A DNA stretch of 64,000 nucleotides from an uncultured Erysipelotrichaceae bacterium (GCA_902795215.1 CADBKG010000004.1:17259-81258), one strand, 5' to 3'; shown: positions 40,471 through 58,319, counted from the first letter of the stretch. Notes: generated by a model not told the origin, from the sequence alone. A program made the numbers and translations.

Positions 40471-40754
40471 ATGGATAACTTAGATAGAGCGTTAAAAGGT
40501 ATTGTTATAGATGCAGGGCATGGTGGTGTAGATAGCGGGGCAGTTGGTAATGGTCTTGTTGAAAAGGACTTAACATTAGAGATAAGCAAATACATGTATG
40601 ATAGATTTAAAAGTATGGGAGTTCCTGTTTCATTAACGCGTGATTCTGATATAACTTTATCATCTGATAATAGACCAAGTGTTGTTTTAAATAAATATGG
40701 TAATTCTAGTGATATATTAGTACTTTCTAACCATATAAATGCGGGTGGAGGCGA
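40471..40754 (+). pseudogene. N-acetylmuramoyl-L-alanine amidase (Amidase_3, CwlC-like), fragment 1 of 3, interrupted by element A
   Basis: IVIDAGHGGVDSGAVGNGLVEKDLTLEI...LSNHINAGGG matches the N-terminal half of Amidase_3. After 40754 the frame reads unrelated sequence to a stop at 40791. Confidence 0.85.
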
Positions 40755-40823
40755 TGGTCAAAGTGTAACAAACATTAAGTATAACAATTAAAGCCTAAAA
40801 ATAATAAGAAATGGAGAAATGTT

Positions 40824-41174
40824 ATGAATATTAGTTACACTAAAAAAGGTGATTATTTATTACCTAATTTAATATTAAAAGAAAAAGTACAATATAATAT
40901 AGGAAAATATGGATTATTAAGACTAGAGTATATTAAGAAAGAAAAATTAGGATTATATTTTGATTTACTTGTTAATGATACTTTAAATGAATATCTTCAT
41001 GATATAGATAATATTGTTATGGAGAAAGTGCAAAGTTTAATTAAAGAACTTGCTGAAAAAGAAAATATAAATGATAAGTTAAAACAAGATAATCAAATGC
41101 TTTGGGTAAGTAAAATGAATAATATTAAAAATAGAGCAGAAGAAATAATTCTAAAGGAGTATATCTATGTGTGA
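40824..41174 (+). CDS. tnpV: TnpV-like transposon-associated protein
   Basis: YTKKGDYLLPNL...QDNQMLWVSKMNNIKNRAEEIILKE resembles TnpV of Tn4451-family elements. Confidence 0.7.
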   Translation: MNISYTKKGDYLLPNLILKEKVQYNIGKYGLLRLEYIKKEKLGLYFDLLVNDTLNEYLHDIDNIVMEKVQSLIKELAEKENINDKLKQDNQMLWVSKMNNIKNRAEEIILKEYIYV

Positions 41175-41534
41175 TACTTACCGGTATGTATTAATTATGA
41201 TAACTATCTAAAAGAATTTGTAATACCTGATGTAGTAGCCTTTTATATAGCAGATAATTTTTATAAAAAAGTACTTTCTAAAGCGCCACTATATAATCAT
41301 ATTAATTCAGCAATAGATATATTTAATGTAAGATGTGATATAGATAAACTAATACCATCTATAAAGAAGATACTAAGAATTAAATATAATTTAAGAATAG
41401 TAAAAGATAATCCGATGATATTAAAGAAATTTTATTAAAAAGAAGAACTCTATCAGATTTAAACGATAGAGTTTTTATATTAATTAAACTGATGATTCAT
41501 GTGTTATAATAATAGATAATTTTGGAGGTACTAT

Positions 41535-42473
41535 ATGACAGATGAACAAATAAAAGAAATTACTAAGAATTTAACAGAAGATCAGATTAAACAATTATTA
41601 AAAATGTTGACTGAAAAGGATTTGAATACTTTAAAAGAAAAACTAGAAAAATCAGTTAATAATAATTTTATAATTCCATTAAGGAAGGCAAATAAACAAA
41701 ATATCAAATTATTATATAAAAATAATGATATTCGTAGAGAGACAACTAATTTATTAAATCAATCATTAATATCAATTAAGAATATACATTATTTAATAAG
41801 TAAAAAATCATTAGTAGATGCAAATACTTTATTAAGGTCATGCTTTGAAAATATAGTTATGGCTATGATGATATATTTTGATGACGAAACATACAATGAA
41901 TTTAAAATACTTGGATTAAAAGATGAGGAAAGAGAATATACAAATCTTTCTAAATTAAGGAATGGCTTAAAAAAGAAATTAAAAACAATAAGTCCAGAAA
42001 TGTTTAGCGAGATGAATAATAGAACAATAGGACACTTGTTAAAAGAATTTTATGATAAACTTTGTTTATATACTCATAGCACTTTAGTTGTTAACGCGAT
42101 GATAGAAGTTGGAATAAATAATGATGAAGATTTATTTATTTCTATTAACAAAGTAAATGTATATTTTTTAGAGATATTGGTTTATGCGTGTTTAAAATAT
42201 TTAAGTAAGAATGAAGAAATGTCAATAGATATTACTTATATACTATTTGGAATGTTTTTAATGTTATCAAGAATAGATAAAGATAAATATTCTGACGAAT
42301 ATATGAAAAGATATAATGATTTATTACATCCAGATATAAATGGTGAATATTTTAAAAAGAATACTCAAGATATAATAGAAATTCAAAAAATGGCAAAAGA
42401 GGTTAACCAAGCTATAGAAGATAATCCGGTTGCAATTATTAATTTATTAACTGAGTTATTAAAAGAATTTTAG
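41535..42473 (+). CDS. Hypothetical protein
   Basis: 312-aa ORF with RBS GGAGGT; helical; no confident motif. Confidence 0.45.
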   Translation: MTDEQIKEITKNLTEDQIKQLLKMLTEKDLNTLKEKLEKSVNNNFIIPLRKANKQNIKLLYKNNDIRRETTNLLNQSLISIKNIHYLISKKSLVDANTLLRSCFENIVMAMMIYFDDETYNEFKILGLKDEEREYTNLSKLRNGLKKKLKTISPEMFSEMNNRTIGHLLKEFYDKLCLYTHSTLVVNAMIEVGINNDEDLFISINKVNVYFLEILVYACLKYLSKNEEMSIDITYILFGMFLMLSRIDKDKYSDEYMKRYNDLLHPDINGEYFKKNTQDIIEIQKMAKEVNQAIEDNPVAIINLLTELLKEF

Positions 42474-42654
42474 AAATACAATTATTGTCTAGCCAGCACT
42501 GAATTTGTACTCCCGTACAAAATTCTTTTGTGGGATTACTCCCAAACCCTATTTTAAAAATTAAAAATTTGTAAGTATTTCAATGTCAAAATTAAAAATT
42601 TGTCGAATTATATGTTATAATAATATTGATTTGAAACTTTAGGAGTGAGAGAGT

Positions 42655-43311
42655 ATGAAAGAAAAATGTGGAGTAATTTATATATTAACTAATCCATCAT
42701 TTCCAGAGTATATCAAAATTGGATATGCTGACGATGTTGAAGCAAGAGTAAAACAATTAAATATTTCTGAGGCTGTTCCTTTTTCATTTCATATTTATGC
42801 TACTTTTGATGTAACTGAGAGATTAACTGATATAAAATTACACAAGTTTATAGATACTATAAATCCAGAACTTAGAAGTAAAGAAAAAATAGGAGATAAA
42901 ATTAGAGTTAGAGAATTTTATCATATGAGCCCAGAAGAAATGTATTCTGCATTTGAAAGTATGGCTGAAATAAATGGAACAACCAATAGACTTCATTTAT
43001 GGAAAGAAACAAATGAAGAAATAGAAGATAGGAAAGAAGCATTGTTATTATCAAAAAATAGACATCATTTTAAAAATATAAATTTTCATTCAAGTTTAAC
43101 AGGAAAAGATTATTATTCTAAAACAAATGAAGATGGAACTCTAGGTATATATGAAAAAGATACAGATAATGAAGTTCCAAATAATTCAAATCCCTCAAAA
43201 CGTCAAATTTTATATTCAGCACTTGAAGATTTAGGCGGAGATGTATCTAGTGGAAATACTTTATATCAATTAGAGCACAAATTAGAGAAAATTTTAGTTA
43301 GTAGGAAGTGA
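42655..43311 (+). CDS. GIY-YIG-like T5orf172 (MUG113) domain protein
   Basis: GVIYILTNPSFPEYIKIGYADDVEARVKQLN is the typical T5orf172 N-terminus. Confidence 0.65.
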   Translation: MKEKCGVIYILTNPSFPEYIKIGYADDVEARVKQLNISEAVPFSFHIYATFDVTERLTDIKLHKFIDTINPELRSKEKIGDKIRVREFYHMSPEEMYSAFESMAEINGTTNRLHLWKETNEEIEDRKEALLLSKNRHHFKNINFHSSLTGKDYYSKTNEDGTLGIYEKDTDNEVPNNSNPSKRQILYSALEDLGGDVSSGNTLYQLEHKLEKILVSRK

Positions 43312-43315
43312 TATT

Positions 43316-44437
43316 ATGGCTAATAACGAAAGTTTGAAAAGAGCAAAAAAAGAAAAAGATGATGAATTTTATACTGAATACTCAGACATAGAAAAAGAAA
43401 TGAATGCTTATCTAGAATATAACCCAAATGTTTTTAAAAATAAAACGATACTACTTCCATGTGATGATCCAGAGTGGAGTAATTTTACTAGATATTTTGC
43501 TCAAAATTTTGAATTACTAGGACTTAAAAAACTTATAAGTACCAGCTATGCTAACGATAAAAAAAGTGCAGTATTTGTTCAATTATCACTATTTGAGCAA
43601 GAAAGTCCTAAATTTGATAAGAATAAGACTAATTCACATGGGAAAATATTTACATTAGATAGAGATACAAATAAATCGGGTAGAATTGATATAAATGATT
43701 TAGAATGGGACTATCTAAAAGGAGATGGAGATTTTAGATCTGACGAAGTAAAAAAATTAAGAGATGAAGCTGATATTATTATAACTAATCCCCCTTTTTC
43801 ATTATTTAGAGAATTTCTTTCGTGGCTAATAGAATCTGGTAAGCAGTTTATCATTATTGGAAATGAAAATGATGCAACTACCAAGGAAACATTTCCATTA
43901 GTAAGAGACGGTGTTATGTGGTTAGGAAAAAATGCTGGTGATATGTCATTTAAAGTACCAAAAGATTCAGAACCACGAGAGACAAGATTTTGGATAGACG
44001 AAAAAGGGCAAAAATGGCGCAGTATGGGTAATATATGTTGGTATACTAATATTGACTTAAAAAGACGTCATACTGTACTTAATTTGATGACTATGCACGA
44101 TAACTTAAGATATAACAAACCTTTAATAAAAAAATTAGAAAAAGATTATGGACTAAAAACTTATCCAAAATTTGATAATTATAATGCTTTAGAAGTTCCT
44201 AGATATGATGCTATTCCATCTGATTACGATGGTGTAATGGGTGTACCAATAACATTTCTTAAACTACATAATCCCAGACAATTTAGAATAATAGGTCATA
44301 CTCATTCTGGAGATACAACACCAGAAGTGGAAAAGTTGAGAACTATTCCATCTAAACGTCACAGAGGCCATATTAATGGGAAACAGATTTATGATAGAAT
44401 TTTAATTCAGAAAGTGGATGGTGAAAATGAAAACTAG
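43316..44437 (+). CDS. EcoRI-methylase-like N6-adenine DNA methyltransferase
   Basis: [16 protein letters not shown]-terminus and catalytic [14 protein letters not shown] (NPPF) motif. Confidence 0.75.
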
Positions 44438-45611
44438 ATTAAGGACAGATTTAACTATTAGACAGATATGTGAAGGATTTCAATATAGTGAATCTGAAGA
44501 AAAAGGATTATTTGGTTGGGCAGGTAAATTAACTATTCAACCAGAATATCAAAGAAATTATATTTACGCTAATGGAAAAGATGATGTTGCTGTTATTGAT
44601 TCTTTATTAAAGGGTTATCCTATAGGATTAATTTATTTTGTTGAAACAGAAAAAGATAAATATGAAATTCTTGATGGACAACAAAGAATAACTAGTATAG
44701 GTAGATATGTAACTAATAAATTTGCATGGATTGATGAAAACGATATTCCATATAAATTTGAGTCACTTCCAAAAGATAAACAAGATAAAATATATAACAC
44801 CGAATTAACCATTTATATTTGCAGTGGTGAAGAGTCTGAAATAAAAGAATGGTTTAAAACAATTAATATTGCTGGTAAGCCATTAAATAACCAAGAATTG
44901 TTGAATTCTATTTATAGTGGACCATTTATTACTAAAGCAAAAGAGGTATTTAGTAATTCACAAAATTCTAATTTACATAAGTGGTTGAGTTATATGAAGG
45001 TTGAAGTAAAAAGACAAGGATTATTAGAAGTCGCTTTATCATGGGTTTCAAAAGATTGGGAAAAAGATGGTAATCTTGAAAAATATATGGCAGATCATAG
45101 ACATGATGATAATATTAATGAATTAACTTCATATTTTAATGATGTTATTAACTGGGTTTCAACTATATTTATTGATGTAAAAGATGAAATGCAATATATT
45201 AATTGGGGAAAAATGTACGAAAAGTATCATAAAAATCCTTATAATTCTAATGATGTTTCAAGAAAATTAAATGAATTATATAGTGATTACTTTGTAAATG
45301 ATAAAAAAGGTTGTTATGAGTATATATTAAATGGTTGTAAACAAGAAGATACAAAATTACTTAATATTAGACTTTTTGATGAGCCAACAAAAAAGACAGT
45401 ATATGAAAGTCAAACACAAAATGCTAAAATTAAGAACATTTCTAATTGCCCAATGTGTGTAATCGAAAACTTATCTAATAAAACAAAAATATGGGATTAT
45501 AAAGATATGGATGCTGATCATGTAACTGCATGGAGCAAAGGGGGATCTACTGACATTAGTAATTGTCAAATGCTATGTAGAACACATAATCATATTAAAG
45601 GAAATAGATAA
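44418..45611 (+). CDS. DUF262 (ParB-like nuclease) plus HNH endonuclease fusion, GmrSD-type type IV restriction-like
   Basis: [11 protein letters not shown] and [10 protein letters not shown] (DGQQR) motifs; C-terminal [35 protein letters not shown]. Confidence 0.75.
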
Positions 45612-45617
45612 TATTAA

Positions 45618-45667
45618 AGCGCTAGTACAGGCTTAAATATGTTTAAGTTTTTGTATTGCGCTTTTTT
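45618..45667 (+). repeat. Second copy of the terminator-like hairpin element (see 36546-36593)
   Basis: AGCGCTAGTACAGGCTT...AAGTTTTTGTATTGCGC plus TTTTTT. Confidence 0.6.
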
Positions 45668-45684
45668 AGTAGTAGGAGGTAGTG

Positions 45685-46875
45685 ATGTTAAGAATATATA
45701 TAGGACCTAATGGTTATGGAAAGACATATGCAATTAATAGTAAAATAGAAGAATTAAAAAAAGAGGATAAAAATAGAAAAGATATAATAATACTAAATTC
45801 TGAAATAGTTTTTGCAGATGAGATGAAGGATAGTGTTAATAATTCATTTGTTATGGAATATTTAATAGAAGAATTATTAGAAAATGATGATATTAATACT
45901 GCAAAAAATAATTATGAAAAATTAATAGACAAAAATGTAGAAGAGAATAAAAAAATGTATAATGATATTATGAATGAAGTGTTATCTCTTAATAATCAAC
46001 AGAGAAAAAAAGATGTTATAGATACTACATCTAGTAAAGAACATAAAAAACTTATCAAAATAAATTCAGATGATTTAAAGAATTCTATGGGTAGCGGTCA
46101 AAAATTGCAATTTTTATTAAAATTAATTGAAAAAAGCAATAAAAAATATATATTTTTAGACGAACCAGAGAATCATACACATCCTTCATTATTACACATT
46201 ACAGCTGGATTGATTAATAAGTTGAGTATAGATAAAGATGTGTGTATTGCAACTCATTCTCCAGAATTACTAAGTTTGTTAAATATTGATTTTAATGAAT
46301 TATATATTTTTAATGATCCAAATTATGGGAACCCTAAGAAAATAAATTTTAATGATGCGGTATCTATTTCAAAATCTATACATTTAGATAATTTAAATAA
46401 TAAATCAAAAACTTATTATAACGCATTAAGCTTTAAAAAAAATATAATAGAGTTACATAAAAAAGAATTTTTTGAGGCTATTTTTTCAAAAAAAGTATAT
46501 ATGATTGAAGGTATTAATGACTTATTATTTTTAAAATCATTATTAGTAAAAAATCTTGAGCAATATAATCAATATAGTATTTTTCAATGTTATGGAAAAC
46601 CTCATTATTTGCCTTTTATTAATGTTTTTGAACAATTAGGGATTGAGGTTGTGCCTTTATTTGATATTGACGATAAAAATGATAGCAATAATGTTTTGAT
46701 TAATGAAGAAATAAAAAAATGTAAGAAATATTTAGAATTTGACGATAATTTAGAAAATGAATTGAATTATTTGGGGAAAAAGACTGATACTACAGCTTTT
46801 ATTGAGTTTTTGGATAACTTTAATAATTATAAAAAATATAGTTCTATATTTGATGGAAGTGATGAAAATGTTTAA
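45685..46875 (+). CDS. Compact OLD-family protein (ABC-type ATPase plus Toprim)
   Basis: Walker A GPNGYGKT, signature-like MGSGQK, Walker B YIFLDEPENHTHP, ATHS; then Toprim-like VYMIEGINDLLF and PLFDIDDKND. Confidence 0.6.
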   Translation: MLRIYIGPNGYGKTYAINSKIEELKKEDKNRKDIIILNSEIVFADEMKDSVNNSFVMEYLIEELLENDDINTAKNNYEKLIDKNVEENKKMYNDIMNEVLSLNNQQRKKDVIDTTSSKEHKKLIKINSDDLKNSMGSGQKLQFLLKLIEKSNKKYIFLDEPENHTHPSLLHITAGLINKLSIDKDVCIATHSPELLSLLNIDFNELYIFNDPNYGNPKKINFNDAVSISKSIHLDNLNNKSKTYYNALSFKKNIIELHKKEFFEAIFSKKVYMIEGINDLLFLKSLLVKNLEQYNQYSIFQCYGKPHYLPFINVFEQLGIEVVPLFDIDDKNDSNNVLINEEIKKCKKYLEFDDNLENELNYLGKKTDTTAFIEFLDNFNNYKKYSSIFDGSDENV

Positions 46876-49180
46876 TATATTAAATTTAGATCCATTAGAA
46901 TTTGAAAAGTTTTGTATGGATTTTATGGAGAAAAAATTAAATACAAAATTTAAAAGATTTGGTCCGGGAAAAGATGATGGAATTGATTTAATAAGTTTAG
47001 ATGGAAAAATTATATGTCAATGCAAACGTTATAAGGACTCATTAAATTTAAAAACAGTTTGTCAAAATGAATATAATAAAATAAAAAACACAGAATTTGA
47101 AAAATACTATTTACTTACAACTGCAGAACTGGGTAAAAAAATAGTAGAAAATATATATGAAATTTTTCACGAATATATGGATGATTACTCTTATATAATA
47201 GGGAAAACAGATATTGATGACTTTTTATCTGACACTAATAATATAGATGTTTTGAAAAAAAATCATAAATTATGGCTATCTTCATCTATTGTTTTAGATT
47301 TGTATTTAAATAGATATTCTGATGCAATAAGTAAGGTAATTATAAATGATTTTGAAAATGAAACAAAATTTTTTGTTGAAACCAAAGCTTATTATAATGC
47401 AGTGGATATTATTAATTCAAATGGAATAATCTTATTTGTCGGAGATCCTGGTATTGGAAAAACAATAACATCAAAAATGTTAATAAGATATCTTTTAGCA
47501 AATAATAAAGATTATAAATTGACAACAGTATCTAATAACGACTTATCAAAATTAATAGAGTCTGTACATCAAAATGATGATCCTGAAATAATATTTTTAG
47601 ATGATTTTTTAGGTCAAACTTCATTATCTTTAGATGATAAGTTGATTAATGATTTAAAAAATTTATTGAAGTTAACTACAATTTTTAATAATAAGAAGGT
47701 TATATTAAATAGTAGAATTACTATTTTAAACAAGGCAAAACATGAAAAAGAAGAATTTGAAAAATTATTAGATGAAATAGGTATAAAAGAGTGCCTAATT
47801 GATGTAAATGATTTAAGTCAATTAGATAGGGCGAGAATATTGTATAACTTAATGTATCATAATGGTGTTACAAAAGAATCATTTAATACTATAAAAAAAG
47901 ATAACAATTATAATTTAATAATTAATCATAAATCTTTTAATACACGAATCATTGAAATGTGTTGCAAAAGATCTAATAGGGTAGCTTCTGAGAATTTTTT
48001 TAATTATATTATTGAATCATTAAATAATCCAAAAGATATTTGGAAAAGTGAGTTTGAGAGAATAGAAACGTGTGATGTAGTCCTAATGTATCAATTGTAT
48101 ACATTAGGAAATAATTATATACCAGTTGATTGCCTTCATAAATCTGTTACAAATTATCTTTGTAATTCTAATTCTGAAGTTGAAAAATATAGCTTTGAAG
48201 ATTCAATAAATAGATTGAGTAAGTCATTAATAGGAATTGCAATATTAGGCAAGAAAAAATATATAAGTGTTCTAAATCCATCTATTAATGACTATATTCA
48301 GAATTACCTTTTAGATAATTTGGCTGAATTAAAGAAAATTTATGATAATGCATTATATATAGAGCAAATAGATAAAATAGTGAATATTTTACCATCTATT
48401 TTAGAAGATAAAATTGAGGGCTTTGAAAAATTAATTGCATATAATCAATATAATTCGTTCATGAGTAATCAATATTTAGACAAAAAGAAGAAAATTAATT
48501 TTATATTAAAAAATAAATATTTTGATAAAAATTTAATTAATTATATTAGTGATTTATTTAATATAGATATTGGTGGAAATTATTTAATTAAAATGGCAAT
48601 GGACGAGAAAATACGAGAATATTATAATTTAGAAGAAAAACTATCTAATATGGATTTAGTTTCAAAGAGGTTTTGTGATGCAGACTATGATTATATAGAG
48701 GAATTATTTGATTATTATTCAACTCAAAAAATTCCATTAACTATTATTGAAGAAAGTTTAGAAGAAATATATGTAAATGCTTTAGAACAAAAATTGACAA
48801 TTATTGGTGAAGAATATGCAAAAGAATTGATAAATGAAGCATCTGCAGATGAAAAATTTGTTGGTGAAATAGAAGAAATTGAGGTAAATAGTGATTTTGT
48901 ATATGAATTAAGAACACAAGTAGAGGATGAAATTAAAAGTCAAAGTTTTGAATTGATTAACTTAATTAAAGAAAAAGGTTATGAGATGGAAAATATTAAA
49001 ATAGATGTAGACATAATAATTGATAATATTTGTATTGAGATGCTTCTTGATGACGATTTGACGTCATTTTTAAAGGACTTAGCTGTAGAGAATATGGAAT
49101 ATGATTATTCAGATATGGGAGCACGTGATACAATTACAATTGATGATATATTTAATCAAGAATATGACATTATTAATTAA
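46862..49180 (+). CDS. Mrr-like nuclease fused to a STAND/NACHT-like P-loop NTPase with a helical C-terminal region
   Basis: N-terminal GPGKDDGIDL...IICQCKRYK (Mrr_cat-like); Walker A GDPGIGKTITS; Walker B IIFLDDFLGQ. The start at 46862 overlaps the upstream stop. Confidence 0.6.
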   Translation: MKMFNILNLDPLEFEKFCMDFMEKKLNTKFKRFGPGKDDGIDLISLDGKIICQCKRYKDSLNLKTVCQNEYNKIKNTEFEKYYLLTTAELGKKIVENIYEIFHEYMDDYSYIIGKTDIDDFLSDTNNIDVLKKNHKLWLSSSIVLDLYLNRYSDAISKVIINDFENETKFFVETKAYYNAVDIINSNGIILFVGDPGIGKTITSKMLIRYLLANNKDYKLTTVSNNDLSKLIESVHQNDDPEIIFLDDFLGQTSLSLDDKLINDLKNLLKLTTIFNNKKVILNSRITILNKAKHEKEEFEKLLDEIGIKECLIDVNDLSQLDRARILYNLMYHNGVTKESFNTIKKDNNYNLIINHKSFNTRIIEMCCKRSNRVASENFFNYIIESLNNPKDIWKSEFERIETCDVVLMYQLYTLGNNYIPVDCLHKSVTNYLCNSNSEVEKYSFEDSINRLSKSLIGIAILGKKKYISVLNPSINDYIQNYLLDNLAELKKIYDNALYIEQIDKIVNILPSILEDKIEGFEKLIAYNQYNSFMSNQYLDKKKKINFILKNKYFDKNLINYISDLFNIDIGGNYLIKMAMDEKIREYYNLEEKLSNMDLVSKRFCDADYDYIEELFDYYSTQKIPLTIIEESLEEIYVNALEQKLTIIGEEYAKELINEASADEKFVGEIEEIEVNSDFVYELRTQVEDEIKSQSFELINLIKEKGYEMENIKIDVDIIIDNICIEMLLDDDLTSFLKDLAVENMEYDYSDMGARDTITIDDIFNQEYDIIN

Positions 49181-49336
49181 TGAAAAAATAATATATGGGA
49201 GTACAGTTTGTATTCCTTTTTTCTTTTTTGTACAATATCTTTTTATTTTTATTTGATGTAAGATGGAAACACCTAGGAGAAGTAGTATGTAAAAGTGCAC
49301 TTTTATAAAGATATATTTTATGTATGATTCTATAGA

Positions 49337-49780
49337 ATGGATACTATGGAAGAATTTATAAATCCAATTATACCAATATCGGTATTAAGTGATAGTAGAA
49401 TATCATCTTTAGAAAAGTTATTATTACTACACATAATTTCTTTGTGTAAGAATAAAGGATATTGTTGGGCTACAAATAGTTATTTTATGAATATTCATGG
49501 ATATAGTAAACAAACAATATCTAAAAGTAATTCTAAACGTACAATTACACTTGACCATGTATTAAAGAATAAGATACAGGGTATTAAAGAAAACTTTAAT
49601 TCTAGTATTCAATCAAACTTTAAACAATATAAAAAAAGTAATATAAATAAAATATATTACAAGGATGAGTTGGGTAATGAATATTGGAATGGACAACTAA
49701 TTAAAAGTGAAACACCAACTGAAGAAGAACTTGAAGAACTGAATAAATTATTAGAAGAATTTAAAAAAGAGGAGGAATAA
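49337..49780 (+). CDS. HTH-domain protein (phage/plasmid replication-type HTH), possibly truncated
   Basis: LEKLLLLHIISLCKNKGYCWATNSYFMNIHGYSKQTISKS resembles HTH_36-type N-termini; the remainder is atypically short. Confidence 0.4.
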   Translation: MDTMEEFINPIIPISVLSDSRISSLEKLLLLHIISLCKNKGYCWATNSYFMNIHGYSKQTISKSNSKRTITLDHVLKNKIQGIKENFNSSIQSNFKQYKKSNINKIYYKDELGNEYWNGQLIKSETPTEEELEELNKLLEEFKKEEE

Positions 49781-49826
49781 AAATATTATGGGAAAAATTA
49801 TCATAGAATTTTTTAAGAGGTGAAAA

Positions 49827-49922
49827 ATGTTTAATATTAAAGAAACCTTTAAAAAAGATGATAATTCTACTATTAATGATTTGATAATTGGATATATAAA
49901 ATGTGTTTTAATAAAATCGTAG
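49827..49922 (+). CDS. Small ORF upstream of recombinase A (shortened homologue of 58605-58784)
   Basis: RBS AAGAGGTG; 31 aa; FKKDDNSTINDLIIGYIK aligns with FKDASISLNEIITEVLK of the element B ORF. Confidence 0.35.
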   Translation: MFNIKETFKKDDNSTINDLIIGYIKCVLIKS

Positions 49923-49997
49923 ATTTGTTATATGTCTATTTTAATGGTAGACTCAAGTCAGGCTTTAAATGTTATACAAAAGAAAGGAGTAGAAGCT

Positions 49998-51584
49998 GTG
50001 TATAACACTATACTAGAGCACCCTAGTTACTATAGAGTAGGATTATATATAAGATTATCTGAAGCAGATTCTGATAAAAGTTATGAATCAGAAAGTGAAA
50101 GTATTATTAATCAAAGAAATTTATTAATGAGTTTTGTAAAACAAAATGAATTTACCTTTGTCGATGAATATATTGATGATGGATTTACTGGTACTAATTT
50201 TGATAGACCTGGATTTAAAAGGTTACTTGAAGATATTGAAAATGGTAGAATAAACTGTGTTATAACAAAAGATTTATCTAGACTTGGTAGAAATTATGTT
50301 ACTTGTGGTTATTATGTAGATGAGTATTTTCTTTTAAAAAAAGTTAGATATATTGCTGTACTTGATCAAGTAGATACTTTTTTAAATAATGTTGGTAATG
50401 AAATGATACCTTTTAAATCAGTATTTAATGATATGACAAGTAGAGATAATTCTAAAAAGATACGTTCTATTTTAAGAAATAAGAAAGAAGATGGAAAATT
50501 TATTGGAAGTGAGCCTAGCTTTGGCTATATGAGAGATCCAGAAGATAAAGGGCATTTATTACCTAATCCTGATACTGCCTTTATTGTTAAAAAGATATTT
50601 GAAATGGCAAATAATGGTGTAAGTGTAAGTGATATTGCAAGTTATCTTAATGATTGTAAATATCCAACACCAAGTTTATACAAAAAGAAAGAAGGCTCAA
50701 AACAAAAATTCAATCCTATATGGACTGTTTCATCAGTAAAGAAAATACTAAAAAATCAAATGTATACAGGTGATATGGTACAAAATGTACAAACTAAATT
50801 ATCATATAAATCTCAAAAAAAAGTTGCTCTTAATAAAGAAGCATGGATAATTGTAGAGAATACTCATGAACCATTAGTTAGTAAAGAAGTTTTTAATAAA
50901 GTTCAAAGTAATGTTAAAAGAAAGCAGAAAACACAAACTGATAGAGAAAAAAGATTATTTGAAAATCTTATTTATTGTCAGGAATGTGGCAATACTTTAA
51001 CGGTTACTTACCGAAAAAATCATGATTATTGGACTGTTAATTGTAATAAATATTCAAGAGATCCTAGAAGACATTTATGTTATCCACATTTTATGCCTTA
51101 TGATAAATTAGAAGAAGCATTACTAGGTACTATTAAAAACACTTGTAAGAAATATCTAGATGAGATTGATGTTAAATCATTAGCACGACTTATAAATGAT
51201 AAAAATACTTCTAAAGAAAGTACAACGGAAGAAATTAATTTTTTGAATAAAAAAATTAAAGAATACAATGCTAAAATTGATATGCTATATGATGATAAAT
51301 TTAAAGGTAATATTTCAGAGGATACTTATAAAAGATTATCAAGAGAAACAGAAATATTACTAAATCAATCTAAATCTAGAATAGAAGAATTACAAGCAGT
51401 AGATATAAAGAAAAAAGAGTCTACAAAAGAAATGAAAAACTATGAAGATAAAATTAAGAAATTAATAAATCTAGATAATCCAAGTAGAGAATTATTACAA
51501 TCTATTATTGATAAAATTGTAATTGATAAAGATAGAAACATCGAAATATTTTATAAATTCAGTTTATTGAATGATATTGATTAA
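49998..51584 (+). CDS. Large serine recombinase (TnpX/SpoIVCA family) of element A
   Basis: Resolvase domain VGLYIRLSEADSD...YIDDGFTGTNFDRPGF...DLSRLGRNY, recombinase domain, zinc ribbon CQECGN...CNKY, coiled coil. The GTG at 49998 follows AAAGGAG; the ORF stays open back to 49932. Confidence 0.9.
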   Translation: MYNTILEHPSYYRVGLYIRLSEADSDKSYESESESIINQRNLLMSFVKQNEFTFVDEYIDDGFTGTNFDRPGFKRLLEDIENGRINCVITKDLSRLGRNYVTCGYYVDEYFLLKKVRYIAVLDQVDTFLNNVGNEMIPFKSVFNDMTSRDNSKKIRSILRNKKEDGKFIGSEPSFGYMRDPEDKGHLLPNPDTAFIVKKIFEMANNGVSVSDIASYLNDCKYPTPSLYKKKEGSKQKFNPIWTVSSVKKILKNQMYTGDMVQNVQTKLSYKSQKKVALNKEAWIIVENTHEPLVSKEVFNKVQSNVKRKQKTQTDREKRLFENLIYCQECGNTLTVTYRKNHDYWTVNCNKYSRDPRRHLCYPHFMPYDKLEEALLGTIKNTCKKYLDEIDVKSLARLINDKNTSKESTTEEINFLNKKIKEYNAKIDMLYDDKFKGNISEDTYKRLSRETEILLNQSKSRIEELQAVDIKKKESTKEMKNYEDKIKKLINLDNPSRELLQSIIDKIVIDKDRNIEIFYKFSLLNDID

Positions 51585-51586
51585 TT

Positions 51587-51948
51587 GAAGTTAGTTTATT
51601 TCTAACTTCGTACATATAGAGGCGAAAATACAAAGAAATTATGTGTAAAACTATTGAATATAAATGTTATAACAAACTTGTGACCAAATTGGGTAAAAGT
51701 TACTAATATGAATGATTAATTAACTTCGGCCCAAGTTGGCCAAAGTTAGTGCAATATCTTCTAACTTCCCACAAACTTGGATGGAAGTGGGATAATTAAA
51801 CTTACGACCAAGTTAGTCGAAGATTATATAGTAACTTCTGACCAAATTGAACAGAAGTTGCAATGTTAAATTTGAAGGAATAATAATTATTGTTTTGATT
51901 CTATTAATATTTAAAAAAAATAACTTTGTCGCAAGTGGCGACGAAGTT
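51587..51948. repeat. Array of seven imperfect palindromic units built on AACTT/AAGTT
   Basis: Units at 51587-51609, 51675-51701, 51722-51747, 51763-51791, 51798-51822, 51833-51859 and 51922-51948. Outer arms AACTT...AAGTT are conserved; inner arms vary but remain largely complementary. Confidence 0.7.
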
Positions 51949-52094
51949 AAAAAAAATTTAAATAATATATTTTAATTTTTAGTACATTATAATAAAGGCG
52001 TAATAATTCTTAAAATTAAAAAGCTATTACGGTTAATCGTAATAACTTTACAAAAGTGTAAAAATGATATATAATGTAATCAGAGGTGATTTAT

Positions 52095-53300
52095 ATGCTT
52101 TTAAGAGAAGATTATTTATCTAAAATTAGAGGGTTTTATGATTCTGATTTGATTAAAATATTAGTTGGTATAAGAAGATGTGGAAAATCTGTTATTCTAA
52201 ATCAAATAATAGAAGAATTAAAAGAAAAAACAAAAATTGATGAAGAACATATAATATTTATTAATTTTGAATTTATTGAATTTGAAGAACTACTAGATTA
52301 TAAAAAACTAAATAAATATATAAAGGATAAAATTAAAGATAATAAAATATATTATTTGTTTTTAGATGAAATTCAGAATGTTGATAATTTTGAAAAAGTT
52401 GTTAATTCACTACGTGCGCAGGTAAAAAATATAAGTATATTTTTAACTGGATCTAATAGTAAAATGTTATCAGATGAATTATCATCAGTTTTATCCGGTA
52501 GATATGTTTTATTTAATATTAATCCTTTATCTTATAAAGAATATGTATCTTTAACAAATAAAGATGGTAAAGACTTAAATACTTTTTGGGACTATGCTAA
52601 ATGGGGAGGACTCCCTAATAGATGTGAATTTACAAATGAGATAGATATAAAGAATTATCTTCATAGTGTATATGATTCTATTATTTTAAGAGATGTTGTA
52701 AAAAGATTAAATTTAAAAGATACAGTTTTATTTGATATGATATTGCAATATTTAATTGAAACTGCTGGACGTGAATTTTCTGCTGATAATATTATAAAAT
52801 ATTTAGATAAAGAAAATAAAAAAATATCTAATGAAACACTTTATAATTATATAGATGCTTTATGTAAGGCATTAATACTTAAAAAGGTATATAGATATGA
52901 TATTGCTGGTAAAGGTGTATTAAAAACATTAAATAAGTATTATGCTACTGATTTAGGAATTGCTCAGATAAAAAATAATAATTCAGAATTTAAAAGTTAC
53001 GTTGTATTGGAAAATATTGTTTATAATGAGTTAATAAACAGAAACTACGAAGTATATATTGGTAAAACTAAAAATGGTGAAGTTGACTTTTTAGCAAAGA
53101 AAGATGGAAATATTAAATATATCCAAGTAACTTATGAAATGGAAGGCAACGATAATACCATAGAAAGAGAATTTGGAGCATATAAGTCTATTGAAGATAA
53201 TTATCCAAAATATGTTATTTCTCTTGATAAAATAGATTTATCTCGTGATGGAATTATTCATCTAAATTTAATTGATTTTCTATTAAGTGAAGAGTTTTAA
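52095..53300 (+). CDS. AAA-type ATPase with a DUF4143-like C-terminal domain
   Basis: Walker A GIRRCGKS, Walker B YLFLDEIQNV, typical ~400-aa AAA_14/DUF4143 layout. Confidence 0.65.
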   Translation: MLLREDYLSKIRGFYDSDLIKILVGIRRCGKSVILNQIIEELKEKTKIDEEHIIFINFEFIEFEELLDYKKLNKYIKDKIKDNKIYYLFLDEIQNVDNFEKVVNSLRAQVKNISIFLTGSNSKMLSDELSSVLSGRYVLFNINPLSYKEYVSLTNKDGKDLNTFWDYAKWGGLPNRCEFTNEIDIKNYLHSVYDSIILRDVVKRLNLKDTVLFDMILQYLIETAGREFSADNIIKYLDKENKKISNETLYNYIDALCKALILKKVYRYDIAGKGVLKTLNKYYATDLGIAQIKNNNSEFKSYVVLENIVYNELINRNYEVYIGKTKNGEVDFLAKKDGNIKYIQVTYEMEGNDNTIEREFGAYKSIEDNYPKYVISLDKIDLSRDGIIHLNLIDFLLSEEF

Positions 53301-53317
53301 ATTGGGAAAATTATATG

Positions 53318-53357
53318 CTGCAGAGAATTCTGCAGAGCTCTGCAGTAATCACTGCAG
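53318..53357. repeat. Four phased CTGCAG(A) motifs in the intergenic region
   Basis: CTGCAG at 53318, 53330, 53340 and 53352 (spacing 12, 10, 12 nt); includes the perfect 16-nt palindrome CTGCAGAGCTCTGCAG. Confidence 0.7.
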
Positions 53358-53379
53358 ACTTAAACAGTAGGTGTGGTTT

Positions 53380-54405
53380 ATGGATAAAAAAGTAAGTAGA
53401 AACAATCATTATTTATCGCAAATGTATTTAGATGCATGGAAAAATAATGATAATAAAGTTTTAGTATATGAATTATTAGTTCCAAATGAAAAATGTCCCA
53501 TGTGGAAATCTAAATCAATAAAAAGCGTTGGAAGTTATGATAGTATGTTTGTTAGATTAAAAAACGGAATTGAAGTAGATGATATTGAAGAGTGGTTTAG
53601 AGATAGATATGAAACTCCAGCAAAAAAATCATTAGAACATGCTATAAATGATGGAAAAATAACTGTTGATGAATGGCATTGTTTAATTGATTTTGTTGCT
53701 TGTCATATTGTTCGTTCTCCTGCTTTTTTAATTAAAACTTTGGATTATGGTAAAAAATGTGAACCAATTTTTCAAGAAGTATTGAGTGAAATATCAAATA
53801 TGAAAGAAGAAGATTTTATTAAAACAAAAGAACGTTCTAATTATTCTAATAATAAAGATGAGTTATTTCCGTTTAAAATGACGAAAATCGGAGAAGAAGG
53901 CAATAATGTAATTTTTAAGGCAGAAACAATTATAGGAAAACAATTTTATTTATGGAACATGAAGAATCTATTAGAAAACACTTCTAAAATATTGCATAAG
54001 CATAAATGGGGAATTATTACAGTAGATGATAAAGTGGTATTACCTACAAGTGATGATCCTGTAATTTGTTTAAACTATAATAATCAAAATGAGTATGATT
54101 TTGACGGAGGCTGGGGTAAGAAAAACTGTAATATATTATTTCCAATATCACCAAAGAAAATATTATATACTCAGGTAGGATTAAAAGTAAAACCAAGAAT
54201 GAACATAGACTACGAAACAAGTTTATTATTTAAGAAAATGATAGTCGAGCATTCTCATAGAAAAGTTATTTCAACCTATGCTGATAAAGATGCTGTTATA
54301 ATTAAACCAAGATATGTAAATGAAAGTGAATATCAAAGAGAAAAGAAAATGTGGGAAGATTTTCAAAAAGACTATTTAGAAAAAGAAATAGATTATATAA
54401 GATAA
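53380..54405 (+). CDS. DUF4238-like protein
   Basis: N-terminal NNHYLSQMYLDAW resembles the DUF4238 signature (NHY.P..YL..F); the family call is tentative. Confidence 0.45.
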   Translation: MDKKVSRNNHYLSQMYLDAWKNNDNKVLVYELLVPNEKCPMWKSKSIKSVGSYDSMFVRLKNGIEVDDIEEWFRDRYETPAKKSLEHAINDGKITVDEWHCLIDFVACHIVRSPAFLIKTLDYGKKCEPIFQEVLSEISNMKEEDFIKTKERSNYSNNKDELFPFKMTKIGEEGNNVIFKAETIIGKQFYLWNMKNLLENTSKILHKHKWGIITVDDKVVLPTSDDPVICLNYNNQNEYDFDGGWGKKNCNILFPISPKKILYTQVGLKVKPRMNIDYETSLLFKKMIVEHSHRKVISTYADKDAVIIKPRYVNESEYQREKKMWEDFQKDYLEKEIDYIR

Positions 54406-54500
54406 AATTGTTAATTACTAAAAGTCGAAACCGTGACAATTTTTCACACTTTCAAGACTAAAAATAAAATAGTTACATTTTGACCTATGCGAGGAGGCGA

Positions 54501-54833
54501 AGGCGCAGAAGTAATATATGCTTTAAGAAACAACGACACACTTGCAAGTAAGATTCTTAATAATCTTGTAAACGAAGGCCAAATAGGAAGAAAGTATTAT
54601 CAAAAAAGATTACCAAGCAATTCTAGTAAAGATTATTATTATATGTTAAGGGAAACACCAAACACAGAAAGTTTAATTATTGAATATGGTTTTATAGATA
54701 ATGCAAATGATGCAAAAAAACTTACAAACAACTGGCAAAACTATGCTGAAGCTGTAATTAAAGCAGTTATGGATTATAAAGGATTAAAATATGTTCCAAT
54801 TATAACTGCAGATAGTTATATTGTTAAATCAGG
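54501..54833 (+). pseudogene. Amidase_3 C-terminal half plus the start of LysM-1, fragment 2 of 3
   Basis: EGAEVIYALRNND...LIIEYGFIDNANDAKKL...YIVKSG continues fragment 1 in frame. The annotated ORF 54487-54867 begins and ends in element sequence. Confidence 0.85.
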
Positions 54834-54895
54834 AGATACGATTTTTATGGGGAATAATGAGTATTAAATTAAATTTTATATATAAAATATTGCTT

Positions 54896-54920
54896 AAGTT
54901 GAGAAAAACTCAACTTTTTT
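54896..54920 (+). terminator. Terminator just inside the left end of element B
   Basis: AAGTTGAG-aaaaa-CTCAACTT hairpin plus a T-run, followed by the extended -10 TGGTATAAT (54921-54929). Confidence 0.65.
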
Positions 54921-54968
54921 TGGTATAATTTAATTATCAAGAACTTTTTTGAAAGGAGTACACTTTTT

Positions 54969-55373
54969 ATGAAAGTAAAATTAACTGAAGTAATTGATGC
55001 ATTAGATTTTACAAATGATGAAATTGAATATTATTATAATCCAGATAATGGAGAAATTTTTATGTCAAATATTGGAGATTATGAAGACATAAATGAAGAT
55101 GAATTAGACGAATTATTTGAAAAGTCTATTATGTTACCTACTAGATATGATATTAACGAATATGAAATGATGGAAGATTTTGCAGAAACTATTGAAGATG
55201 CTAGACTTCAAAATCAACTATATATTTCTTTAAATGGTAGTGGTGCATTTAGAAGATTTAAAGATACTTGCATTAATTTTAATATTATTGATGATTGGTA
55301 TAAATTTAGAGATGAAAAATATAAAGAACTTGCTATAAATTGGTGTAAGGATAATAATATTGAATTTGAATAG
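54969..55373 (+). CDS. UPF0158-like small acidic protein
   Basis: 134 aa; the pattern MKVKLTEVIDALDF...YYYNPDNGEIF...GSGAFRRFKD is typical of UPF0158. Confidence 0.5.
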   Translation: MKVKLTEVIDALDFTNDEIEYYYNPDNGEIFMSNIGDYEDINEDELDELFEKSIMLPTRYDINEYEMMEDFAETIEDARLQNQLYISLNGSGAFRRFKDTCINFNIIDDWYKFRDEKYKELAINWCKDNNIEFE

Positions 55374-55383
55374 GAGATGAATC

Positions 55384-56940: not shown

Positions 56941-56955
56941 AAAGATGGTGATAAG

Positions 56956-57901
56956 ATGAAAAACAACATGATTATATATGTATCAAAAGATGGTAATGTA
57001 AAAGTTGATGTTAATATACAAAATGAGGATATTTACATGAGTCAAGATTTAATGGCTAATCTTTATGATACAACTAAAAATAACATTTCAATGCACTTAA
57101 AAAACATATTTGATGAAGGTGAATTGGAAAAAAATTCAGTTGTTAAGAAATTCTTAACAACTGCTAGTGATGGCAAGAAATATAATGTTTTACATTATAA
57201 TTTAGATGCAATTATTGCTGTTGGATATAGAATTAATTCCAAAAAAGCAACTGAATTTAGAATATGGGCGACCAAAGTTTTAAAAGAATATATGGTTAAA
57301 GGATTTGCTTTAAATGATGAAAGATTAAAGAATAATGGTGAAAGTCCATATTTTGAAGAATTACTTGCAAGAATTCGTGATATTAGATCATCTGAAAAAA
57401 TATTTTGGAGAAAAGTATTAGATATTTATGCAACTTCAATTGATTATGATGACTGTGCAGAATAAAATGCACTATGCTACACACGGACATACTGCTGCTG
57501 AAATTATATTTACTAGAGTAGATTCTGAAAAAGATTATTTAGGTCTTACTAATTTTAAAGGTAATTATCCAACAAAGAGTGAAACTGAAATTGCTAAGAA
57601 TTATTTAACAGAAGAAGAACTTAATATATTAAATAGAATGGTATCAGCGTATTTAGATGTAGCAGAAATTAATGCTTTAGATAGACATCCAATGACTATG
57701 CAAGATTGGGTTAATGAATTAGATTCATTCTTAAAAATGACGAGAAAAGATATTTTAAATGGTTCAGGAACCATTTCACATAAAGAGGCATTAGAAAAAG
57801 CACATAAAGAATATGATAAATACATGCAAAAACATTTAACAACTGCTGAGCAAGATTATTTAGAAATGTTAAATAAAGAGATTGAAGAAATTGATAAATA
57901 A
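56956..57901 (+). pseudogene. RhuM-family protein, disrupted (two overlapping frames)
   Basis: 56956-57465 carries the RhuM N-terminus (HLKNIFDEGELEKNSVVKKF...YNLDAIIAVGYRINSKKATEFRIWATKVLKEY). The continuation (TVQNKMHYATHGHTAAE...) lies in another frame from about 57450. Confidence 0.65.
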
Positions 57902-57975
57902 TTTAGTATGTTTTTTGTTAATAAATTCACTTAAAAATAATTACTATGAAAAAAAGATTTGAAAGGAGTAAAAAA

Positions 57976-58224
57976 ATGAAAAAATGGAAAACAGTAAAAA
58001 AAATTACTGTAGTTGTTTTAATACTTTTTATAATAAGATTGATTATTGATGCTATTTTATGCATGAATATGACTTATCCTCATCCTATGTTAGGTATAGA
58101 TGCAAATAAGTGGACAGATCAGTTCGGTGTAGATTTAGCATTTATTCTAGTTATTTGGGGTATACCTTTAATAATTGATATTATTTTTTTAGTAATATCA
58201 TGTGTTAAAACAAAGGAAAAGTAA
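57976..58224 (+). CDS. Small membrane protein
   Basis: RBS AAAGGAG then ATG at 57976; two hydrophobic segments. Confidence 0.45.
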   Translation: MKKWKTVKKITVVVLILFIIRLIIDAILCMNMTYPHPMLGIDANKWTDQFGVDLAFILVIWGIPLIIDIIFLVISCVKTKEK

Positions 58225-58319
58225 AAAGACTATTTATAAATTTAAAATCATCCTTTATATAAACCTACAAAGTAGGTTGAATTTCGTAAGTACGAAATAA
58301 GAATGGTGTATACACAAGT

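Follow-up and report, generated by a model that had tools for sequence, protein, structure and literature searches.

The locus raises the question of what kind of element has split a cell-wall amidase gene in an uncultured Erysipelotrichaceae bacterium, and which enzyme placed it there. The stretch of DNA analysed, hereafter the window, comprises 64,000 nucleotides, and all features given below as parts with coordinates lie on its + strand. A preliminary description had proposed that the junctions of one insertion, Element A, rebuild the attP of a large serine recombinase (LSR), which would fix its boundaries and argue against a random rearrangement. The analysis presented here indicates that Element A (40749..54494; 13,746 bp with one GG copy counted), an LSR-borne integrative defence island delimited by junction comparison and by excision at GG, which restores the reading frame, is very probably a site-specific island moved by its own recombinase, LSR-A.

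The host gene encodes a cell-wall amidase composed of Amidase_3 and three LysM repeats, and is interrupted by Element A after ...HINAGG. Its 5' fragment (40471..40748) contains codons 1-93, ends at the crossover GG, matches the Pfam Amidase_3 profile at positions 1-80 (E=1.4e-17) and aligns by tblastn with residues 1-99 of P0001, an intact database homologue. The middle fragment (54495..54833), which reaches as far as the GG within the SGDT motif of LysM 1, corresponds to residues 93-210 of P0001 by tblastn and to Amidase_3 profile positions 85-172, and the 3' fragment (60363..60792), with LysM repeats 1-3, covers residues 205-348 with 94% identity (tblastn). Joining the chromosomal halves restores the Amidase_3 frame as ...SNHINAGGGEGAEVIYALRN, a stretch identical in P0001, in agreement with the earlier view that these halves constitute an attB within coding sequence. 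Element A cuts off the C-terminal half from the Zn-binding N-terminal part, which stops at the conserved 'SNH' motif. Going by what is generally known of the Amidase_3 fold, we take the catalytic Glu to reside in the C-terminal half; since it is thereby cut off from the Zn-binding part, the amidase should be inactive while Element A is in place. A SleB/CwlJ-like Hydrolase_2 gene is found near the amidase locus.

Element A is real, but it turned out to be only half of the story, since a second LSR element, Element B (54834..60362; 5,529 bp), occupies the same gene 340 bp downstream of the A site, in the first LysM motif. Recognized from ORFs and Pfam domains, junction comparison and in-silico excision, it contains UPF0158, SWIM, a split RhuM and LSR-B (58784-60349). 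The two recombinases are 38% identical, the ...YIRLS... motif of LSR-A aligning with LSR-B, and Element B is independent of Element A. In-silico excision of both elements yields a gapless 348-aa ORF that is 91% identical to P0001.

Direct reading confirmed every coordinate of the 8-bp block GGAGGCGA, common to attL and attR, whose left and right copies lie at 40747..40754 and 54493..54500; it occurs at these two junctions only in the whole 64-kb window (0.04 expected by shuffling). Next to it, also by direct reading, are the P' arm GGTCAAAGTGTAAC (40756..40769), which spans half-site positions of about 8-21, counted from the centre of attP, and the P arm GTTACATTTTGACC (54472..54485). The arms are complementary at 13/14 positions, as expected from the 14-bp inverted repeat with one mismatch described earlier, and a search of the 64-kb window with the 14-nt arm, allowing at most 2 mismatches, hits only the two arms themselves, which are oppositely oriented (0.32 expected). 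Combining the element-side halves gives an attP with the layout GTTACATTTTGACC-TATGCGA-GG-AGGCGAT-GGTCAAAGTGTAAC, in which the 16-nt spacer TATGCGAGGAGGCGAT has GG as its two central bases, again as first described. All related elements have the left arm in the form rrTCAwwGTGTAAC, and at the right end of related elements the conserved form is GTTACAywTTGAyy. Just inside the left arm, a 17-nt block GTATAACAATTAAAGCC (40779..40795) is kept in all clades, as seen in an attL alignment of 19 loci.

Seen in the window alone, terminal inverted repeats combined with an 8-bp direct repeat form the classic signature of a DDE-type transposon, of which the 14-bp arms would be the terminal repeats and GGAGGCGA the target-site duplication, and such a transposon would predict the same empty site. 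However, the direct repeat is not adjacent to the inverted repeats: the gap is 1 nt at the left end and 7 nt at the right end. A Pfam scan of all ORFs of at least 60 aa revealed neither a DDE transposase nor a tyrosine integrase in Element A. Comparison with other genomes weighs further against a DDE transposon: the supposed duplication varies in length from 2 to 8 bp, on one side of GG the adjoining bases are those of the element, on the other those of the host, and the same codon is struck in more than 30 species, a precision that DDE transposons do not have. The probability left for this explanation is negligible.

The comparison set consists of 38 related loci from gut metagenome-assembled genomes (MAGs), whose recombinases are 46-98% identical to LSR-A; 14 genomes in which both junctions are present served for statistics on attP and crossover. 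GG is the only dinucleotide common to attL and attR in 14/14 of these genomes, and, together with attP symmetry, this assigns the crossover to the GG at 40747..40748 in attL, where it forms positions one and two of the second Gly codon in HINAGGG, and at 54493..54494 in attR. Dyad symmetry of the 14 rebuilt attP sites reaches 17.9/24 at GG, compared with 4.3-8.7 at every other centre within 6 nt, with symmetric positions at 1, 9-12 and 16-21. The sites are thus pseudo-palindromes around a non-palindromic dinucleotide, the attP architecture of a large serine recombinase, as had been proposed. In the clade with 57-59% identity, TGGw is flanked by palindromic arms of 20 nt (18/20). attB, attL and attR have the central dinucleotide in common and no base is gained or lost, as in conservative insertion; joining the gene fragments at GG in the 14 genomes gives a full-length or otherwise explained ORF in 13/14. 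Furthermore, the wobble base of the third Gly codon is C in 17/18 A-type attL but variable in attR, which places the exchange to its left. These junctions show that insertion is precise, with the crossover at GG.

The claim of a shared 8-bp core was only partly sustained. The block is identical at both ends here, but elsewhere identity between attL and attR falls to 5 bp (GGTGG), 3 bp or 2 bp (GG), and among the 14 genomes GG alone is kept. The conserved core is GG alone, the 8-bp identity being specific to the window and the remaining bases of the block matching by chance, given the codons chosen in the host and the sequence of the element. The base following GG counts against the LSR reading: the two junctions of the window have A, close relatives of the element and most hosts have T, and the empty allele discussed below has G, so that a coincidence of polymorphisms is required. 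A further point against it is that the attB has a dyad symmetry of 7.6/24, i.e. none. In the A118/LI model, the zinc-ribbon recognition motif lies about 5 bp nearer the centre in attB than in attP (PMC3783163); inspection of attB did not reveal a copy of the outer arm motif 5 bp inward. The B' arm and P' share GTAA in the same register (+17 to +20), a similarity of sequence alone that does not imply placement of the protein.

The recombinase gene at 49998..51584 encodes a complete LSR of 528 aa, with Resolvase (PF00239), Recombinase (PF07508) and Zn_ribbon_recom (PF13408) domains, all above Pfam cut-offs, i.e. the domain set by which an LSR is recognized. The longest ORF starts at 49932; the GTG start at 49998 is supported by AAGGAG 8 nt before it and by agreement with relatives. 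The best solved relative is the catalytic domain of TnpX (2mhc, E=2.7e-25) and the best annotated relatives are TndX proteins, with about 35% identity. Two other genes belong to the backbone. A TnpV-family protein at the left end (40824..41174; Pfam TnpV PF14198, E=1.1e-36) has homologues in 14/38 related loci (42-91% identity, tblastn), many others of which stop short of the left end. Directly upstream of the recombinase, an HTH_36 DNA-binding protein (49337..49780; Pfam HTH_36) recurs in 35/38 loci (37-97% identity), and its adjacency to the recombinase was confirmed by ORF position in L035 and L023. Because they are conserved across related loci, both are candidate accessory proteins: either may assist control of direction or expression, the HTH_36 protein being a candidate regulator or directionality factor.

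TnpX and TndX as nearest relatives might suggest a transposon of the Tn4451/Tn5397 type, whose TnpX/TndX-like enzyme would exchange strands at GA in relaxed targets, the amidase being one of many sites. The presence of TnpV, the kinship with TnpX and TndX, and the occurrence of GA twice within the 8-bp core of the window all speak for it. However, every relative with a visible junction is inserted at this one codon of the amidase gene, and the GA in codon 4 is missing in L007 and L028 (attR) and in L026, L030 and L039 (attL), whereas GG is invariant. In addition, DUF4368 is not among the Pfam hits of LSR-A at E<=0.01, and no Mob/TnpZ relaxase was detected in the ORFs of Element A. Because it is site-specific, Element A is not Tn4451-like, and we regard such a transposon as very improbable.

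Most of the remaining sequence is cargo, identified with Pfam and PADLOC. The first variable block (41535..49180) encodes a 312-aa protein and T5orf172 (PDC-S57), followed by a type II restriction-modification pair formed by an EcoRI-like adenine methylase and a GmrSD_N/HNH nuclease, and finally an OLD-like AAA_21+TOPRIM protein and Mrr_cat+nSTAND3 (PDC-S73). Most of these genes are missing from related elements. The second block (52086..54405), with an AAA_14/DUF4143 ATPase (PDC-S01) and a DUF4238 protein, is present in only some relatives. The backbone consists of TnpV, HTH_36 and the LSR, and the remainder is exchangeable anti-phage cargo. A point against the main reading is that among ORFs of at least 60 aa in Element A, no relaxase, Mob, conjugation or packaging gene was detected, nor was an oriT, although an oriT without relaxase is possible; ORFs sampled from L035 and L023 contain no relaxase/Mob family either.

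Every visible junction among the 38 related loci, found in more than 30 MAGs of uncultured gut Bacilli/'Tenericutes', splits the amidase at the same codon. With recombinases diverging from 98% to 46%, this agrees with the proposed boundaries, disfavours a random rearrangement and speaks against ends at other positions. Many divergent LSRs acting on one target-gene cluster are a sign of site specificity (PMC10083194), and serine-recombinase integrative mobilizable elements usually insert inside dispensable genes, at short identical sequences (PMC5704250). LSRs 97-98% identical are found in hosts whose amidase fragments are only about 50-66% identical, with different cargo. The Element A family moves between species, and its target is the same across dozens of them. 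The predicted empty attB exists: L048, a near-conspecific contig, aligns colinearly with the repaired gene (96.7% identity, 0 gaps), and three positions, all synonymous, set it apart from the predicted attB. In L050, also a near-conspecific contig, this GG is occupied by another A-type element, so that occupied, differently occupied and empty alleles coexist among the window and these two contigs. L042 has the attL of the window and different cargo.

Two further explanations accept the role of an LSR. Elements A and B may be programmed gene-intervening elements of the skin/SPbeta/gin type, whose regulated excision, e.g. during sporulation or in a subpopulation, rebuilds the amidase. The repaired gene has no frameshift or stop here and in 13/14 other hosts, despite an old association between LSR family and amidase; both elements sit in frame-critical motifs from which in-silico excision is precise, the Hydrolase_2 gene is nearby, and known precedents use LSRs (PMC5595907, PMC5499854, PMC4191935). 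Recent insertion, however, explains intact ORFs equally well. The cargo is typically selfish or defensive, the disparity between LSR (98%) and host amidase (50-66%) identity speaks for horizontal movement, and empty, singly and doubly occupied alleles in near-conspecific contigs have the look of ordinary gain and loss. Moreover, no sporulation context for amidase or host was shown and no directionality factor was identified, and regulated excision is improbable. Somewhat less improbable, but still unlikely, is an immobilized remnant, whose junctions date from an earlier LSR integration but which can no longer move. Neither JGI metagenome contigs nor IMG/VR yielded the joined attP of an excised circle when searched with the family-wide attP pattern, and a degenerate pattern for all four window-specific att sites likewise drew a blank in JGI metagenome contigs, results that also count against the main reading. 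The locus has decayed to some extent, since the OLD-like ORF matches its ATPase profile over the C-terminal part only and RhuM of Element B is split, and base +1 of the window attP breaks the dyad found in 13/14 sites. Against a remnant stand the full-length LSR ORF with its three domains, 97-98% identical to copies in other species, the two intact arms (13/14), and presence/absence and cargo variants among near-conspecific contigs. An island still served by its recombinase therefore remains the preferred reading; LSR-A is probably active at present, and excision of Element A would re-form the amidase gene.

By analogy with established LSR biochemistry, LSR dimers would bind the dyad-symmetric attP of about 44-46 bp on the circular element and the asymmetric attB in the amidase codons ...H-I-N-A-G-G-G-E-G-A-E-V.... 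The enzyme would then make 2-nt staggered cuts at the central GG of each duplex, and rotation of half-sites followed by religation would generate attL (40747-48) and attR (54493-94), bases being neither lost nor gained.

Element A is a clean and well-supported, though ordinary, case of a mobile element of known kind. Like other site-specific LSR integrative elements of Firmicutes (PMC5704250, PMC10083194), it has one LSR with Resolvase, Recombinase and zinc-ribbon domains, inserts into a conserved, apparently dispensable gene, has very short attL/attR identity with a pseudo-palindromic attP, and belongs to a set of many divergent LSRs using one target-gene cluster. Unlike the serine-recombinase integrative mobilizable elements of Firmicutes, it has no recognized relaxase or oriT and is not demonstrably mobilizable, and its family differs from the usual Firmicutes LSR elements in its hosts, uncultured gut Bacilli/'Tenericutes' MAGs. 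The HINAGGG motif of an Amidase_3-LysM gene, split after HINAGG, was not met as a target in the literature searched for target genes. With Tn4451/Tn4453 (TnpX) and Tn5397 (TndX) of clostridia, Element A shares a TnpV homologue at one end, a related recombinase (catalytic domain nearest TnpX among solved structures, ~35% identity to TndX), a 2-bp exchange and an expected circular intermediate. It differs from them in its GG crossover (theirs is GA), its single conserved target (theirs are relaxed), its lack of DUF4368, TnpZ/Mob and an antibiotic-resistance gene, and its anti-phage cargo. DUF4368 is typical of a multi-targeting LSR clade (PMC10083194). Tn6115 of C. difficile is reportedly flanked by a GG repeat (PMC3158075), which is a resemblance to Element A only.

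SCC-type cassettes with Ccr (PMC11470126; enterococcal, PMC6222049) are likewise LSR-driven without transfer genes of their own, carry variable cargo including anti-phage systems, and pile up at one locus. However, SCC uses a ccrAB pair and Element A a single recombinase; SCC inserts at the 3' end of rlmH, whereas Element A inactivates its target in the middle of the coding sequence; and in place of tandem att sites, A and B use two different sites in one gene. As in skin/SpoIVCA, SPbeta/SprA-SprB and gin/GirC, an LSR element interrupts a coding sequence whose frame precise excision would restore. In contrast to these elements, nothing about A and B points to developmental control, to a directionality factor or to a role of the amidase in sporulation, and both behave as horizontally mobile defence islands.

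An Amidase_3 and LysM gene is interrupted at 40749-54494 by element A, a 13,746-bp island carrying a large serine recombinase (LSR-A). The preliminary description had proposed that its two junctions rebuild the attachment sites of a serine integrase, and direct reading of the window verified all of its coordinates. The 8-bp block GGAGGCGA stands at both ends (40747-40754 and 54493-54500), and inverted arms lie inside them, GGTCAAAGTGTAAC at 40756-40769 and its near-perfect reverse complement GTTACATTTTGACC at 54472-54485. Joining the element-side halves gives an attP with the architecture GTTACATTTTGACC-TATGCGAGGAGGCGAT-GGTCAAAGTGTAAC and GG at its exact centre, and joining the chromosomal halves gives an attB inside coding sequence, which reads in the Amidase_3 frame (...SNHINAGGGEGAEVIYALRN). 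The 8-mer occurs twice in 64 kb against 0.04 expected occurrences, and the arm, with at most two mismatches allowed, occurs twice and in opposite orientations against 0.32 expected; across the 64 kb both motifs are found at the two junctions and nowhere else.

The genes between the junctions all lie on the + strand. They encode a TnpV-family protein (40824-41174), a T5orf172 protein (PADLOC PDC-S57), an EcoRI-like adenine methylase with a GmrSD_N/HNH nuclease (PADLOC type II methylase and restriction enzyme), an OLD-like AAA_21 and TOPRIM protein (45682-46875), an Mrr_cat and nSTAND3 protein (PDC-S73), an HTH_36 protein (49337-49780), LSR-A itself (49998-51584; Resolvase, Recombinase and Zn_ribbon_recom domains), an AAA_14/DUF4143 ATPase (PDC-S01) and a DUF4238 protein. 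The OLD-like ORF, which runs 74 nt into the following ORF, covers only the C-terminal part of AAA_21 (positions 166-304) and TOPRIM, and its N-terminal part may be missing. No gene for a tyrosine integrase, a DDE transposase, a relaxase or a phage structural protein was detected in element A. Translation of LSR-A most probably starts at the GTG at 49998, as previously annotated, with AAGGAG 8 nt upstream and an equivalent start codon in its relatives. The closest solved structure to its catalytic domain is TnpX (2mhc, E=2.7e-25), and its nearest annotated plasmid-borne relatives are TndX proteins, at about 35% identity. The 500-bp non-coding stretch 3' of the recombinase gene, 51585-52085, holds a 31-nt imperfect inverted repeat (51675-51705 and 51829-51859) with a repeated TGACCAAATTG, a candidate regulatory or origin-like site. 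Rfam returned nothing but a tRNA-Trp between 38 and 62 kb, a megablast search with 40000-55500 matched no PLSDB plasmid or INPHARED phage, and exact-protein look-ups of the window genes at 53371-54405 and 60874-61338 returned no record.

A recombinase scan of one genome per GTDB species yielded 38 related loci (designated by L numbers), all from MAGs of uncultured gut Bacilli, Erysipelotrichaceae or 'Tenericutes', with recombinase identities in tiers of 97-98%, about 89%, 57-60% and 46%. The target is specific: all loci that extend to a junction have the amidase interrupted at one and the same codon. The left junctions (attL) read ...SNHINAGGG(D/E)(G/S/N)(Q/H)(S/C)VT... and the right junctions (attR) ...VT(F/L/Q)*...GG(E/D)GAEV..., with element-side arms GTTACAywTTGAyy and rrTCAwwGTGTAAC; in the 57-59% clade the palindrome reaches 20-nt arms (18/20) around TGGw. 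In L010 (6780-7020), whose recombinase is 94% identical, the amidase is broken at the same GG and other sequence follows (TCGGGATGCATAATATGTGATT...). In this locus, which lacks a TnpV or HTH_36 gene, either the left end is rearranged or the site is used by a third type of element.

These loci fix the position of the crossover. Both junctions are present in 14 genomes, and attL and attR of these were aligned on the codon grid; one dinucleotide alone, the second Gly codon's GG (40747-48 and 54493-94 in the window), was identical in all 14 pairs. Centred on this GG, 17.9 of 24 positions of the reconstructed attP are dyad-symmetric (positions 1, 9-12 and 16-21), against 4.3-8.7 for other centres within 6 nt; the symmetry of attB does not exceed background. 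The central GG named in the preliminary description is therefore the crossover, being the only always-shared dinucleotide and the sole peak of attP symmetry. At the wobble position of the third Gly codon, 17 of 18 A-type attL sites have C, whereas attR sites vary; the base is thus element-derived in attL and host-derived in attR, and the exchange lies to the left of it. Two other positions were considered and rejected: attL and attR disagree in L009, L018 and L023 at the third Gly codon's GG, which also lies 3 nt away from the centre of symmetry, and the GA of the fourth codon, the dinucleotide used by TnpX, is absent from one junction in L007, L028, L026, L030 and L039. In the window, A follows GG in attL (40749) as well as in attR (54495), and this disrupts an A/T dyad present in 13 of 14 attP sites.

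The shared 8-bp core is identical at both ends here, but its length is peculiar to this genome, the identity elsewhere being GGTGG or GG alone. A DDE transposon that had duplicated 8 bp of its target would fit the window taken alone; we reject it because the repeat varies in length and is offset from the arms, no transposase is present, and the target is invariant. The invariant target also stands against a relaxed transposon of the Tn4451/Tn5397 type exchanging at GA, a reading that fails because GA is missing from some junctions and DUF4368 and the Mob genes are absent. The results instead support the interpretation in the preliminary description, that element A works like a site-specific serine-integrase element.

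Insertion is precise and conservative. Cutting the window in silico at its GG pairs gives a 348-aa ORF that aligns without gaps, at 91% identity and equal length, with P0001, an intact amidase homologue whose DNA (L001) is colinear with the predicted attB save for synonymous changes. In 13 of 14 genomes, the ORF obtained by joining at GG is full-length or otherwise accounted for (those of L005 and the window end at the junction of a second element, element B, and that of L030 is cut by the end of the locus); the joined ORF of L006 has no recognisable N-terminus. The empty attB that had been proposed as a search target exists in L048 (Logan DRR868924), reached through look-ups of neighbouring host proteins. 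There the product of the SleB-like neighbouring gene is 100% identical to that of the window and the adjoining amidase is uninterrupted, colinear with the repaired gene over positions 20-1050 (96.7% identity, 0 gaps), with an attB, CATATAAATGCAGGTGGGGGTGAAGGCGCAGAAGTAATA, that differs from the prediction by three synonymous changes. This empty allele has G directly after GG and T for C three bases on, and its differences from the window cluster beside the crossover.

Element A is mobile at the level of populations. Among near-conspecific contigs, L050 carries the right end of another A-type element (...ATCATCTATCACGA|GG) at this GG, and L042 has attL and TnpV as in the window followed by a different gene. 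The exact locus of the window is carried by the samples ENA ERZ28613745 and Logan SRR30827660 and ERR3275138. L050 combines the window allele with another element, and the base after GG is thus most simply taken as polymorphic in the host. Recombinases 97-98% identical occur in hosts whose amidase fragments are only about 50-66% identical, the cargo differs, and the only recurring element genes are those for TnpV, HTH_36 and LSR; this pattern points to a small backbone that has been transferred horizontally and whose cargo would be exchangeable. A degenerate 38-nt pattern for the window's attB, attP, attL and attR had no match in JGI metagenome contigs, and a family-wide attP pattern (both arms and a 16-nt spacer) had none in metagenome contigs or IMG/VR, so no excised circle was seen in these collections. 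That no attP joint was found there would suit an immobilised relic, a reading that retains some plausibility for element A.

Under established LSR biochemistry (e.g. PMC3783163), element A would circularise to form attP, and LSR dimers would bind attP and attB and cut at the central GG with 2-nt staggers before rotation and religation; since GG is non-palindromic, orientation would be fixed. We infer that LSR-A is active at present and that the element excises, and TnpV or HTH_36 may act in direction or regulation. Insertion parts the N-terminal section of the amidase, up to the conserved SNH motif, from the C-terminal half. In the Amidase_3 fold that half contains the catalytic Glu, and the enzyme is therefore expected to have no activity as long as element A is in place.

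At 40779-40795, 10 nt inward of the left arm, a 17-nt block, GTATAACAATTAAAGCC, is kept in every recombinase clade, at identities of 46% to 98%. The block holds the stop codon of the truncated amidase fragment, is followed by tnpV, and might bind an accessory protein or serve as a promoter element. Inspection revealed no promoter across the attP joint of the kind known from Tn4451, TTGACC in the right arm being without a -10 hexamer at a usable distance, and promoter-like matches near the element ends occur no more often than in shuffled sequence. This also holds for the region just inside the right arm, where a promoter-like site facing outward (TTCACA-16-TAAAAT, 54443-54470) is identical across the 97-98% clade; an element-derived ATG at 54487 starts an in-frame ORF across the middle amidase fragment.

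The amidase gene is split again 340 bp downstream by element B (54834-60362, 5,529 bp), which carries UPF0158, SWIM and split RhuM genes and a recombinase, LSR-B (58784-60349), which shares 38% identity with LSR-A. The attP reconstructed for element B is a nearly perfect palindrome of 34 bp, CATAAAAATTGTATC-AGGA-GATACGATTTTTATG, with GG at the centre, and the crossover GG belongs to a Gly codon of the first LysM motif (SGDT|LW). The RhuM-family gene consists of two overlapping ORFs (56956-57465 and 57428-57901; profile positions 1-111 and 119-248) and probably represents a pseudogene with a frameshift. Insertion of the B type is very common and widespread: the element-encoded tail ...GDT(I/L/F)F.GNNE ends 25 of the 26 short proteins (~210 aa) within the top 120 amidase homologues, and the presence of element B varies among near-conspecific contigs. 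This creates an annotation trap, as about a quarter of the closest database homologues are truncated because of the second element (tail ...GDTIFMGNNE).

The intact amidase fragments are compatible with a programmed gene-intervening element of the skin/SPbeta/gin type, an improbable reading. It is very improbable, in our estimation, that elements A and B are two independent, reversible switches on one autolysin gene of uncultured gut Bacilli, with the enzyme made, in the manner of skin/SPbeta, only in cells from which both are excised; such an arrangement would account for three fragments without stops or frameshifts in almost every host examined. The amidase was also considered as a prophage endolysin, which was rejected because the window is chromosomal (26% G+C, with Mur ligases, MurB, ArgS, RF1, TilS, FtsH, ParA and YchF) and the flanks lack phage structural genes. 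Directly 5' of the amidase, 29486-40355 is a defence-island-like run that includes a DNA methyltransferase (phrog_56), a DUF6996/DUF6997/DUF7226 protein, DUF6339, a phrog_30194 protein and several ORFs without a family, and may be another acquired island. Downstream, 61361-61934 holds a SleB/CwlJ-like cell-wall hydrolase gene (Hydrolase_2, minus strand) and tRNA-Trp (61861-61934); the contigs through which the empty site was located encode a hydrolase 100% identical to this one.

The importance of these findings is modest: they leave the understanding of serine integrases and genomic islands unchanged and would not surprise specialists. They are relevant to those working on mobile elements and integrase tools for the LSR/att pair, the targeting of a conserved motif, the defence cargo and the occurrence of two LSR elements in one gene. 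A defined LSR, attP and attB with a GG core, whose variation in at least 14 genomes reveals the constrained positions, is the information needed for testing a new orthogonal integrase for genome engineering. The three-gene backbone (TnpV, HTH_36 and LSR) targets a nearly invariant coding motif and exchanges its cargo, and documents anti-phage systems shuttled between species of hard-to-culture gut Bacilli. A search of the literature on LSR target genes brought up no account of this amidase motif as a target.

With the Tn4451/Tn5397 group, element A has in common TnpV and a distant recombinase relationship, but it fails three defining features of that group. SCC-type cassettes (PMC11470126) are likewise LSR-driven, defence-carrying and without transfer genes, but differ in recombinase number and target. 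Element A matches the 'single target-gene cluster' LSRs of a large computational survey (PMC10083194), and the class of serine-recombinase integrative mobilizable elements, which insert inside dispensable genes (PMC5704250).
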